64,000 nt of DNA from Gemmatimonadales bacterium (GTDB lineage Bacteria > Gemmatimonadota > Gemmatimonadetes > Gemmatimonadales > GWC2-71-9): NCBI GenBank assembly GCA_038321865.1, contig JBBQFH010000002.1:1-64000 (forward strand), written 5' to 3'. Below, one piece after another: positions 45,001 through 48,000 of the stretch. The stretch's first letter is position 1; each line of letters begins with the position of its first letter. A program made the position numbers.

Positions 45001-48000
45001 AGATCGGCCACGCGCCGGAACTCCCGCAGCGCCTCGTCCAGCATGCCGGTCTTGTAGAACGCGATCCCGAGATTTCGATGCTCCTCGATCCTGCTGTCAT
45101 TCATCTTGGGCACCGCGGCCGCCGCCGATGAGCCGGCACGGTGGGCGAACCCTGCCGCAATCAGCCCGTAGAGCGCCTTGCCGACCTCGAACTCCACCAG
45201 CCCGGAATCTTCGACGACCTGCTGCACGTCGCGGGTTCCGTCCAGCAGCGGAAGCAGCCGCTGCTGGACGGCCGAGAGACTGACGCCGGCGGATTCCATG
45301 TGCGTCCGGTCAAGCGAAAAAATCAGGTCAAAGGAAGGAATCTTTTTGGCGATCAGGCTCCACTCGTCCACCCGGCGCGCGCCTTCGAGGAGCAGCGACT
45401 CGGCGTTGATCTGGACCAGGAAGTCTTCCCGTTCCGGCCGAACGCCCGCCTCGAAATTGAACGTCCCGCTCGACCAGGTGAACAGGTAGTACACGGCCTC
45501 CTCGATCTGGAGTCGCATGTACTCCTCGAGTGCCGCCCGTGGCAGCGCTCCCGACTCCACGAGCAGTTCTCCGAGCTTCCGCTCGCGGTCGACGCTCTGC
45601 GCCTGGACCGCCTCCTCGAGCTGTGCCGCGCTGATGCGGCCGCTCTTGACCAGGATATCTCCCAGCCGGTCACGCCGATTCACGATGGAGGCGTAGGAAA
45701 TACGCCCGGCATCGAAGTAGACGTAGCCGAAGTTCTGCCGGTCAGCCACGGCGAGGCAGCCGGTTCGGCGCCCCAATGTCAGCAGCTGAATGACATCCGG
45801 AAGGCTGGCCTCCTTGAGACTGCCCTTGATCGCCATCAGCGCCACTCCTCGATCAGGCGGGCGGCGACGTCGGGCCAGTCCCAGACCATCTTTTCCCGGC
45901 TGCGAATGCCGCCGGCCGTCGGTGCGAGCACGCCGCTGGACCGGGAGCCCGTCCGCCTGGGCGCGCGGATGACGGGGCCTTCGAGTACTTCACGTGCGAG
46001 CGCGGCTGTCGGGTGGGCCTGCTGCGCTTCGGCCGCGTTCAGCACCCGCTGGACCAGGCCGAGCGCGCTGCGCATCGAGTCGGCCGGCCGGGCGGCGATG
46101 TACGCGGCGAGCTCGGGATCCACACCATCGAGCCGCGCCCCCAGCAGCCGCTCGATGGCTCGCTGGCGCAGCTCCCGATCGGGTGCGGGGAGGTCCACCA
46201 CCAGACCACCCTCGAGCCTGGTCAGCAGCCGCGGCTCGACCCCGGTCAACTCCGCCAGCGGGAGCGCGCACGAGAAGACCATCTGCCTGCCCTGCTCCAG
46301 CAGGTGGTTGAACAGGAGGAACAGCTCGTCCTGGCTCCGGTCCTTGCCGGCGATGAGGTGGACATCATCAAGGAGGAGCGCATCCACCTTCCGGTACCGG
46401 GCGCGCCAGAGCGGAACGGCATTGCGATCGATCGCGGAGATCAGCTCCTCGATGAACTCGCTGGTGCCGAGGCAAGCCACGGTGCCTGCCGGTGCCAGCG
46501 CATTCCCGAGGCCATGCAGCAGATGTGTCTTGCCATTACCGCTCGCACCCACGATGACGAGCGGATTGTACTTCGCACCAGGCTCAGCGGCGACGGCCGT
46601 GGCGGCGCGTACGGCCATCCGGTTGGATCCGCTCTCCAGGACGTCGCCAAGCCTCCAGTGCGGCGACGGTCCCGGGGGGGCCGCCGCACCGGCCTGCGCC
46701 CGCTCCAGCAGCCCCGCCGCCGCCGCCACATCATCCGGATCCTGCAGCAGCGCCGACCCAGCGAGCTCGGGCGCGATGCTCGCGAGCTCGTCGGCGATCG
46801 AGCGAAGGCGGTTGACATCGGCCTCGAACGCTCTCAATGCTGCGTCGGGATCCGCGAGTGCGTCGTCGTTGAGCAGCGCGGCCAGCCGCGCGACGCGATA
46901 GCCCTCCCCTTCCCATCGCACCATGGCCTCGCCCACCCGCGAGCGCCACGACTCGACCTGGTGGGTGACCGTCGCGGACACCTCGAGCAGGAAATCGGCG
47001 AACTCGTCCCGCTCCTCCGGCGCCTCCGCTGGCGCGGGCTCCCTCTGCTCCGGCGACGGGTGCGGTGCTTCCGGCAGGGCGTTGGCCAGGCGAACGGCAT
47101 CGGGCGCGTCACGACCGCCCACGAGGAGGCGCGCCTGGCCGGCGTCGAGGAGATCAGGGCTGATCGCCTGGTAGGCGATGAGGCGGTTCAGCGCTCCGAT
47201 GAGCTCCCGGACGTTGTCGATGTCCACCGAGGCGACGGCTTCGAGCACGCCGGCGCCGAAGGCCGCACCGCGTGCTTCCGCCCGGCGCCGGAGAATGGCG
47301 ACCCGCGTCTCATAGTCGGGTGCCGAAATGTCGATCACGAGGCCGCCCGCAAAACGGCGAATCAGCCGTTCGTCGAGCGCCTCGATTTCCGACGGTGGAC
47401 GATCGCTGGTGAGCACGATCTGACGGCCCCCGCGCTGCAGCGTATCCACCAGTCGGAGCAGTTCCGCCTGCATCTCGCGTCGCTGACTCAGAAATTGCAC
47501 ATCGTCGAGCAGCAACAGCTGGGTGTCCGCGAATCGGTGGCGATACGCATCGCCCTGGCCGCCGGCCACGGCGGCATTGACCGCCTCGACCAGCTCGTCG
47601 AGCGTCAGGTATTCCACCGCCAGGCGGGGATCGATCGCGCGAGCGGCGTGACCGATCGCCATGAGCAGATGGGTCTTCCCCAGCCCCGGCCCTGCGTAGA
47701 TGAACAGCGGGTTGTAGCCGCTGCCCGGGGCCTCGGCCACGGCATGTGCCGCCGTCGCCGCCAGGCGATTCGAGGCGCCCACGACGAGTGTCTCGAAGCG
47801 GAATTGCTCCGGCAGCGCTCTGGTCACTCGGCGACACCCCCGACGGCGAGCTTCCGAAGCACCAGCTCGGAGATCCCCTTCAGCGTCTCGAAGACGCCGC
47901 TTCCGTGCAGTGCATCGGCCGTGAAGCACTGTACGCCGCGAAAATTGAGGGCGTCGTCAAGCTCTTCCCGATTCAGCACCAGATCCGCCGGAAGGTCCTG

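Follow-up and report, generated by a model that had tools for sequence, protein, structure and literature searches.

The analysed window, the whole stretch of 64,000 nucleotides that opens contig JBBQFH010000002.1 of the Gemmatimonadales assembly GCA_038321865.1, carries a reverse-strand cluster of chemosensory, roadblock and TPR genes that includes the gene for a tandem DnaA-type AAA+ protein, here called X (Table 1). The GTG start codon of X shares bases (GTGA) with the stop codon of the preceding small GTPase gene, here named mglA from its context, and the stop codon of X shares a base (TGATG) with the start of the following gene, here called Y; a one-base overlap of X and Y recurs in 78 of 107 scored loci, and contig C45 has a further mglA-mglB pair. 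In the best 80 of 128 related loci, mglA immediately precedes X in 73 and Y immediately follows it in 77, every miss being a contig end; X thus stands between a DUF4388-TPR gene and mglA, as the genome-wide survey's note had stated. A promoter scan of positions 39000-58500 returned no sigma-70-like sites, and terminator-like sites in the same interval numbered 2 against 6.4 expected.

Table 1. Genes and protein features of the X-Y cluster, in window coordinates
Feature	Position	Strand	Remarks
Peptidase MA-like gene	39221..40243	-	Often retained next to X and Y
TPR protein closing the cluster	40096..40974	-	
cheR-cheD-cheB-cheW-cheW	40971..44220	-	
Y: PATAN (DUF4388), MshEN-type c-di-GMP motif insert, winged-helix-like part, TPR array	44217..45836	-	539 aa
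Y, tandem MshEN-type putative c-di-GMP-binding motif	45513..45668	-	NF053729, 44.6 bits (cut-off 38)
X: tandem DnaA-type AAA+ protein	45836..47827	-	GTG start, 663 aa
X, motif 2, C-terminal tail EKxxWxWP...R.IEE	45839..45901	-	Residues 643-663; retained in microprotein and single-module forms
X, AAA+ module 2	45989..46666	-	Residues 388-613; Walker A/B and Arg finger retained, sensor I Asp missing
X, helical linker domain	46688..47005	-	Residues 275-380; family-specific
X, motif 1, amphipathic helix DEF..FL..V	46946..47008	-	Residues 274-294; retained in microprotein forms
X, AAA+ module 1	47129..47815	-	Residues 5-233; Walker A/B, sensor I Asp, Arg finger and sensor II retained
mglA-type small GTPase	47824..48426	-	Directly upstream of X
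mglB-like roadblock protein	48430..48891	-	
Roadblock/LC7 protein	48891..49256	-	
TPR and roadblock protein	49235..50104	-	
Second DUF4388-TPR protein	50097..51245	-	c-di-GMP motif 36.1 bits, below cut-off 38
Large TPR protein	51248..53917	-	
cheW-cheY-cheA-cheC	53922..57260	-	Sole cheA of the genome

The reading frame of X matches Pfam Bac_DnaA twice, which agrees with the earlier description of a 663-residue protein with two DnaA-type modules and a helical linker; the linker has no Pfam match, and a search of the ESM atlas with it gave no usable match. DnaA_N and Bac_DnaA_C are not matched in Pfam at E<=0.01, the protein beginning at the AAA+ core, and hidden Markov models of DnaA domains I and IV made from 22 dnaA genes recognised, at E<=1, 23 of 23 dnaA proteins and not one of the 119 proteins of X type, so that the reported absence of both domains holds. 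The identities of 41% and 34% to the genome's own DnaA (458 aa, contig C6) were likewise reproduced. In a predicted structure, each of the two modules can be overlaid on domain III of DnaA (best match rmsd 1.5 Å at 41-42% identity; E 1e-54 and 7e-37 against DnaA), and the tail of X alone reaches a pLDDT of 57-64. With domain III of DnaA (Bacillus subtilis 8BV3/8BTG, Thermotoga maritima 2Z4R, Aquifex aeolicus 2HCB/3R8F) X has in common its fold, sequence, Walker A and B motifs, Arg finger and sensor II; it differs in its two modules per chain, the lack of domains I and IV, a family-specific linker and tail, altered single-stranded DNA (ssDNA) residues in module 1, the lost sensor I Asp of module 2, the dispensability of the modules in relatives, and its coexistence with a true dnaA encoded elsewhere in the genome.

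Against NCBIfam TIGR00362, X scores 420 bits (cut-off 343.9) as the sum of two stretches, the best of which spans profile positions 103-322 of 437; since this total exceeds the cut-off, X-type proteins are mis-named DnaA. X also resembles Hda, as a DnaA-type AAA+ protein without domain IV that keeps the Arg finger, and a homologue is labelled 'DnaA/Hda family protein' in databases; yet X remains below the TIGR03420 cut-off (155.5 vs. 194.8), is far nearer to DnaA than to the solved Hda chains, and has a signalling context. A motif like the Hda clamp-binding motif is absent from X and matched in 1 of 117 homologue sequences. The loader families are more distant, with scores of 95.7 of the required 200 for IstB, 37.3 of 228 for DnaI and 21.8 of 357 for DnaC. 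Known relatives of DnaA such as Hda, DnaC/DnaI and IstB work on DNA or on the replisome.

The partner gene Y, rather than mglA or the che genes, is the constant neighbour of X: it adjoins X in 10 of 12 distant loci, and also in Gemmatimonadetes loci where mgl and che neighbours are missing. In its tandem motif, RLGxx(L/V/I)(L/V/I)xxG...LxxxLxxQ, the first copy fits the consensus of PMC5013675 and the second has K in place of R. Y shares the PATAN domain, and a probable output to PilB/PilC, with cyanobacterial PatA-type regulators such as PixE (10.1101/2021.06.11.447907); it differs from them in that no receiver domain (Response_reg, Pfam) was matched, in its MshEN-type insert and TPRs, and in its pairing with X. 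As in MshE and PilB, the MshEN motif is linked to an ATPase, here through the partner gene and in Candidatus Fermentibacteria through fusion to DnaA-type modules, but this ATPase belongs to the DnaA clade of AAA+ proteins and not to the secretion ATPases.

Across 70 family-level sequences, with positions numbered as in B. subtilis DnaA, the Walker A Lys and the Walker B DD are present in both modules without exception, in keeping with the conservation claimed for both motifs. Module 1 retains Walker A, Walker B, sensor I, the Arg finger and sensor II in 69-70 of 70 sequences. The Arg finger Arg is found in both modules; the sensor I Asp of module 2 is gone and is not among the three commonest residues at its position (P 29, A 27, Q 5 of 70), a loss missing from the earlier note. 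The positions with ssDNA-contact and filament roles in DnaA (sections of PMC6669920 and PMC10721633) have diverged between the modules: module 1 has changed its ssDNA contacts (N187 to E in 69/70, I190 to H or N, K222 to R or Q) and keeps the filament residues R202, F218, R264, L269, G317 and R321 in 69-70 of 70, and module 2 has mostly D at N187 and retains the other DnaA-trio contact positions (I190 69/70, K222 64/70, R202 68/70, R206 69/70, E228 70/70). This retention in module 2 of X's own family is not explained by the adaptor role that we favour below; together with the filament residues of module 1, the superposition on domain III, and the fission and budding of cultured Gemmatimonas (sections of PMC7844134), it would suit a protein that couples polarity signalling to replication or the cell cycle. 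In such a scheme, the modules would form mixed polymers with DnaA, or module 2 would contact ssDNA at the origin, and the tail would tether X to Y at a pole; initiation would in this way be timed to budding or to attachment to a surface. We consider this unlikely: domains I and IV are absent; N187 is substituted in both modules, as is I190 in module 1; module 2 is degenerate or deleted in many relatives, its Walker A Lys persisting in only 11 of 20 other Gemmatimonadetes; both modules are gone in 10 genomes, and no X was seen in 16 of 80 panel genomes; and no replication gene was seen among the annotated neighbours of X. An equally unlikely, broader version would derive X from an ancient DnaA offshoot in Gemmatimonadota, candidate phylum WOR-3 and probably Fermentibacteria, an ATP-dependent filament linking c-di-GMP/MglA polarity and the pilus machinery to the origin or to DnaA; module 1 would be the protein-side switch and module 2 the ssDNA/DnaA contact, surface motility would be coordinated with initiation in budding bacteria, and a 60-aa docking peptide would be left where the link was abandoned.

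The X family extends to sister classes and to WOR-3; the survey's note had credited the sister classes with only ordinary single matches, a statement that was not borne out. Each of the six genomes examined in families f11 and f12 encodes another homologue, which has a single module and the same tail and lies immediately ahead of a TPR gene, and the sister-class forms retain module 1 and the tail next to a TPR-only gene. The ATPase modules are dispensable, relatives grading from tandem to single-module to microprotein forms. In 10 genomes both modules are deleted, leaving a microprotein of 60-75 aa that consists of only the EF..FL helix and the W-x-W...EE tail; all eight genomes that have Y and no DnaA-like X match contain such a two-motif reading frame; in L124, a 60-aa form lies at 8903-9082 and its own Y at 9085-10398. 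Two genomes differ in this frame by 7 synonymous changes and no non-synonymous one, which points to purifying selection on the 60-aa form; the corresponding sequence cluster has 27 members, of which the 15 listed are each 60 aa long. Y is reduced as well, having lost the MshEN insert and the last TPRs in 7 of 8 microprotein genomes and the last TPRs only in the eighth. In a quick tree, a single clade of microproteins is not rejected (p-AU 0.094), so that this form may have arisen only once.

In one lineage X and Y are naturally fused (P0196, 1026 aa; a cluster of four members of equal length). The model of P0196 is of low confidence, with a pLDDT of 60.9 and a pTM of 0.40, and shows no contacts, its tail has a local pLDDT of 76 obtained from a different alignment than X alone, and Foldseek with this model found generic TPR proteins only, among the matches listed. 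The WOR-3 loci mostly lack mglA and keep Y, which is followed by cheR-cheD-cheB in most. A Fermentibacteria contig encodes MshEN-DnaA fusions without domain IV inside a pilD-pilB-pilT-pilC operon, and their modules cluster weakly with basal X module 2 (SH-aLRT 80) in a quick tree with no outgroup and weak deep nodes. A region search with the basal linker gave four proteins, one of them named, and a homologue of X from a cultured species is WP_171224746.1. The degenerate or deleted modules of many relatives, and an X gene split in four close loci (L011, L030, L042, L044), might suggest a decaying dnaA duplicate or an annotation artefact without a function of its own. This is scarcely credible and largely refuted by conservation: no catalytic residue varies among 70 of 70 family members, whose identity is 53-77%, the position is retained from Gemmatimonadota to WOR-3, and even the 60-aa form is under purifying selection. 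Natural splits of X were rejected because the break points differ among the four loci, as expected of assembly errors.

The distribution of signalling and pilus genes was compared in a panel of 80 related genomes of our choosing, 64 with X and 16 without. A match to MglA occurs somewhere in the genome of 64 of 64 carriers versus 3 of 16 non-carriers; this, the overlap of X with mglA and their adjacency in close loci, and the known occurrence of mglA genes near PATAN genes (sections of PMC4316618) would be expected if X were primarily an effector or nucleotide regulator of MglA, comparable to RomR/RomX or SgmX in Myxococcus, with Y in a secondary role. Such a role is rather doubtful, as the operon mglA is lost while Y stays in 11 of 11 f7 carriers, in G204, G052, G072 and G074 and in most WOR-3 loci, and the best MglA-like match in f11 and f12 is only 29-33% identical. 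The Myxococcus xanthus Frz-MglA/MglB-SgmX module shares with the X locus chemosensory genes, MglA, roadblock and TPR proteins and type IV pili, all of whose counterparts here lie in one operon. According to sections of PMC7668184, it is the TPRs of SgmX that bind MglA-GTP, which points to Y or other TPR genes rather than X; SgmX is described there as TPR-only, whereas Y combines TPRs with PATAN and MshEN parts, and a DnaA-type ATPase is not mentioned in that paper.

The position of X amid the genome's only cheA cluster, and the cheR-cheD-cheB genes after Y in most WOR-3 loci, might instead mark X as a dedicated chemosensory component, such as an ATPase for the placement or assembly of the CheA-CheW array. 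This is quite improbable, since 19 of 64 carriers, the single-contig genomes G224, G249 and G259 among them, lack a match to the CheA dimerisation domain, and their loci contain X and Y without che genes. X is independent of the chemosensory genes and of an adjacent mglA, and its family extends beyond the Gemmatimonadales. That the cells lack flagella was supported for X's own genome, in which FliG, FlhA and flagellin were not found (89.85% complete), but not in general, FliG being present in 20 of 64 carriers. At least two PilT-family matches occur in 62 of 64 carriers versus 4 of 16 non-carriers (several PilT are found without X in three f10 genomes and in G085); PilM (77 of 80) and PilT (78 of 80) occur with and without X, so that pilus presence does not discriminate carriers.

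The evidence agrees with the co-option of a DnaA core for signalling in polarity or motility, given the missing domains I and IV, the close linkage with a PATAN-MshEN-TPR gene and the distribution of MglA; the survey's suggestion of co-option for motility signalling survives in this form, shorn of any dependence on che genes. More specifically, X may be an adaptor and regulatory subunit of Y, within a polarity module whose most likely target is the type IV pilus. We assign this model a probability of about one half on the basis of the domain anatomy, the overlapping genes, the joint retention of X and Y, the stepwise reduction to two motifs, and the natural X-Y fusion; the excess of PilT-family matches in carriers and the Fermentibacteria fusions inside a pilus operon also speak for it. 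X and Y would be co-translated, and X would dock on Y via the EF..FL helix and the W-x-W...EE tail, the tail probably on the TPR array and the helix possibly on the PATAN part. The DnaA-derived modules would bind ATP and, as DnaA does, form oligomers by way of their Arg fingers, on protein partners instead of oriC; the oligomers would cluster or gate Y, with module 1 as the working site and module 2 as an accessory. This ATP switch, an optional part of the adaptor, may act jointly with c-di-GMP binding by the MshEN insert of Y, because the modules and the insert are lost together. From the PATAN part the signal would pass to PilB/PilC, the motor of the pilus, and MglA and the Che pathway, in genomes that have them, would feed in upstream; in Synechocystis, PATAN binds PilB1 and PilC (10.1101/2021.06.11.447907). 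As a caveat, several observations count against the adaptor model: X-type genes without adjacent Y in L108 and L119, the apparent lack of the EF..FL helix in the fusion P0196, and the mostly absent Trp motif in WOR-3 tails.

No description of the X family was found in the literature, and no work joining Gemmatimonadota, DnaA and MglA, nor any relevant work joining MshEN and DnaA; the mglA neighbourhoods of PMC4316618 (supplementary table S2) and the PATAN study Makarova 2006, outside the scope of this search, could mention it. For annotation, X-type proteins labelled DnaA or DnaA/Hda yield false second dnaA genes, which is corrected here. The natural series of tandem, single-module, 60-aa microprotein and Y-fused forms provides ready-made minimal constructs. 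If the adaptor model is true, a DnaA core in polarity and pilus signalling would widen the range of the DnaA fold, and X would be an unknown component added to MglA-type polarity modules outside Myxococcus.

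X, a gene that overlaps mglA at GTGA and its downstream neighbor Y at TGATG, encodes a protein in which the Pfam domain Bac_DnaA was matched twice and neither DnaA_N nor Bac_DnaA_C was found; its two modules share 41% and 34% identity with the true DnaA of this Gemmatimonadales genome (contig C6, 458 aa) and 34% with each other. Against the NCBIfam DnaA model X scored 420 bits, passing the cut-off of 343.9 as two stretches summed; this accounts for the label DnaA or DnaA/Hda that databases give to a named homologue (WP_171224746.1). HMMs for DnaA domains I and IV, trained on 22 dnaA genes, recognized all 23 dnaA proteins and none of the 119 X-type proteins; by membership tests at the sequence level, X is neither DnaA, nor Hda, nor a loader. 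The AlphaFold model of X (pLDDT 89.7, pTM 0.58) predicts two AAA+ modules, a helical linker at residues 275-380 and a moderately confident tail, with disorder at 240-274 and 623-642; DnaA domain III was its top-ranking Foldseek match. The partner Y is a DUF4388 protein (DUF4388 is PATAN according to PMC12448109) with TPRs, and its MshEN-type c-di-GMP motif scores above the cut-off (consensus from PMC5013675). Its PATAN half is joined to carboxypeptidase-regulatory-like domains in a large set of proteins of 945-1527 aa (P0159-P0211; 48-63% identity over about 43% of Y), two of which are named as Gemmatimonadales proteins.

Coordinates of X, its surroundings and the relatives' loci discussed in the text
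Feature	Position	Strand	Description
X	47827-45836	-	ORF, 663 aa
Y	44217..45836	-	PATAN-MshEN-TPR gene, 539 aa
che cluster	39221-59453		in the window, with surroundings
Second mglA-mglB pair	C45:7992-9097		same genome, contig C45
L108	L108:9149-11239		basal tandem
L110	L110:9587-11314		WOR-3 homologue of X
L119	L119:9377-11203		apparent fusion to ABC ATPase
L140	L140:4309-15923		Ca. Fermentibacteria locus

Among close relatives, taken as the best 80 of 128 confirmed loci, mglA lies directly upstream of X in 73 and Y directly downstream in 77; the exceptions all lie at contig ends, and the complete che-mgl order is retained. Four close loci carry a split X, which we read as probable assembly errors because the break points differ among them. 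In 70 family-level sequences, module 1 conserves the Walker A Lys (70), Walker B (70), sensor I Asp (69), the Arg finger (70) and sensor II (69), and module 2 retains all of these residues except the sensor I Asp. When X was mapped on Bacillus subtilis DnaA numbering (residue roles in ssDNA contact and filament formation from PMC6669920 and PMC10721633), module 1 had lost the ssDNA contacts N187 and I190 and retained most filament residues; module 2 retains I190, K222, R202, R206 and E228.

The search of the phylum (301 genomes, including four unpublished ones on which no claim rests) could not by itself tell X from dnaA, and 40 loci were then picked by hand; these show full tandem X in genome families f2, f4 and f7, single-module X in f2, f5 and f8, and a module-plus-tail form in one genome (G204). 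The genome-wide survey's note had credited the sister classes with ordinary single matches only; this is contradicted by all 6 genomes that were examined from two sister-class families, where a single module with an X-type tail lies directly upstream of a TPR gene that has no PATAN part. A linker profile retrieved 12 additional loci, 7 of them titled candidate division WOR-3, with Y directly downstream in 10 and the order mostly mglB-X-Y-cheR-cheD-cheB. Since both modules are fully DnaA-like in several unplaced proteins, the tandem probably represents the older state. In a quick unrooted tree with weak deep nodes, the dnaA genes of the phylum form their own clade (SH-aLRT 95), and X modules 1 and 2 fall outside it and separate from each other. 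The WOR-3 homologue at L110 is too diverged for Pfam at E<=0.001, and still has the X linker and a position between mglA and Y. At L108 both modules are fully DnaA-like, the gene lies downstream of a large TPR gene with no Y adjoining, and the N-terminus holds a pattern, found in 1 of 117 sequences, that resembles a motif for binding the sliding clamp. The X-type tandem P0107 (738 aa) ends in a response-regulator receiver domain instead of the tail. At L119, flanked by lptC/lptA-like genes and rpoN, a degenerate DnaA-type module plus X linker is fused to an ABC ATPase, which may be a real LptB fusion or an assembly error. Other tandem DnaA-core proteins (P0079, P0135 and P0149) fall outside the X groups in the tree; P0079 retains domain IV.

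Eight f2 genomes have a Y match and no second DnaA-like match; in all eight, an ORF of 60-75 aa directly before Y consists only of the EF..FL helix (X residues 274-294) and the C-terminal W...EE tail, the latter matching the tail profile with a probability of 95.6. By profile search, the one-piece microprotein occurs in 9 of 121 f2 genomes (two of the 121 are unpublished, and neither is among the 9); G228 brings the total to 10 genomes. Between two of the copies there are 7 synonymous and no non-synonymous changes, and of the 27 members in the microprotein cluster, all 15 that were listed are 60 aa long. Y has lost its MshEN insert and last TPRs in seven of the eight genomes and only the last TPRs in the eighth (G114). 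In the Y tree, seven of the eight form one clade (SH-aLRT 99), and a single origin for all eight was not rejected (p-AU 0.094). Both motifs were pattern-matched in 96 of 117 longer X homologues, the misses being mainly the helix in sister-class forms and the tail Trp in WOR-3 forms. A search for longer Y proteins yielded P0196, in which X and Y are cleanly fused in frame (its cluster has 4 members, each of 1026 aa); P0213, a second candidate, was discarded as frameshift-garbled.

Co-occurrence was tabulated in 80 author-chosen genomes, 64 carriers (microprotein forms counted) and 16 without X; as these are kin and some are incomplete, the figures are descriptive. Y was matched at E<=1e-15 in 61 genomes, every one a carrier, and the three remaining carriers are f11 genomes with a TPR-only neighbor at their loci. 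MglA was matched in 64/64 carriers vs. 3/16 non-carriers, often via a second mglA elsewhere, the CheA dimerisation domain in 45/64 vs. 2/16, FliG in 20/64 vs. 3/16, PilM in 63/64 vs. 14/16, the PilT family in 63/64 vs. 15/16, and at least two PilT-family matches in 62/64 vs. 4/16. Most carriers have the second mglA, and it persists where the operon copy is lost. Of the 12 X-less f6 and f7 genomes in the panel, 11 show one PilT-family match each and the twelfth shows none, and PilM is matched only partially in the four f6 genomes among them, which suggests a reduced pilus machine. In this phylum flagella are patchy and type IV pili widespread (PMC10581226; PMC7844134); the genome studied here yielded no flagellar match and encodes PilB, PilT, PilC, PilD, PilM, three MCPs, six ORFs with a GGDEF-like pattern and a second mglA-mglB pair. 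Its che cluster, which ileS, a dksA/traR-type gene, lspA and rluA precede with no gap, lacks chemoreceptor genes, and the three MCPs are encoded on other contigs (C1, C22 and C52).

The two short X motifs and the TPR array of Y outlast every deletion, and the ATPase modules go together with the c-di-GMP motif of Y, which argues for X as an adaptor. We infer each binding step of this model: X would dock on Y, the DnaA-derived ATP switch would be an addition to the adaptor, and Y would act as the output on the pilus motor; the analogies are PATAN, which binds PilB1 and PilC (10.1101/2021.06.11.447907), and the SgmX TPRs, which bind MglA-GTP (PMC7668184; PMC11580455). The AlphaFold model of the X-Y fusion is poor overall (pLDDT 60.9, pTM 0.40) and shows no contacts; its tail block reaches pLDDT 76 between low-confidence flanks, vs. 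57-64 in X alone with a different alignment, and is a hint only. Against the adaptor reading, pili also occur in genomes without X, two loci have no Y adjoining the X-type gene, and the X-Y fusion seems to be without the helix motif. The adaptor reading also leaves the ssDNA-type residues of module 2 unexplained, and for this reason we retain a link of X to replication as an unlikely alternative.

Two representative-search matches combine MshEN with two DnaA-type modules, P0093 being the second protein of this build. One belongs to a pilD-TonB-pilB-pilT-pilC operon of Ca. Fermentibacteria (contig L140). Between the prepilin peptidase and pilB, pilT and pilC, this operon has three genes that fuse MshEN to DnaA-type modules (983, 409 and about 1990 aa) and one MshEN-only gene; here, DnaA cores without domain IV sit within a pilus operon. 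The kinship of these proteins with X is tentative. At the level of titles and abstract openings, no description of the X gene was found in the literature, and "DnaA" has no occurrence in the main text of PMC4316618, a paper that reports PATAN genes near mglA as well as Group 1 MglA in Gemmatimonadetes. We conclude that the system is of a known kind, the MglA-PATAN-TPR polarity module, and that X is a component of it not described before.
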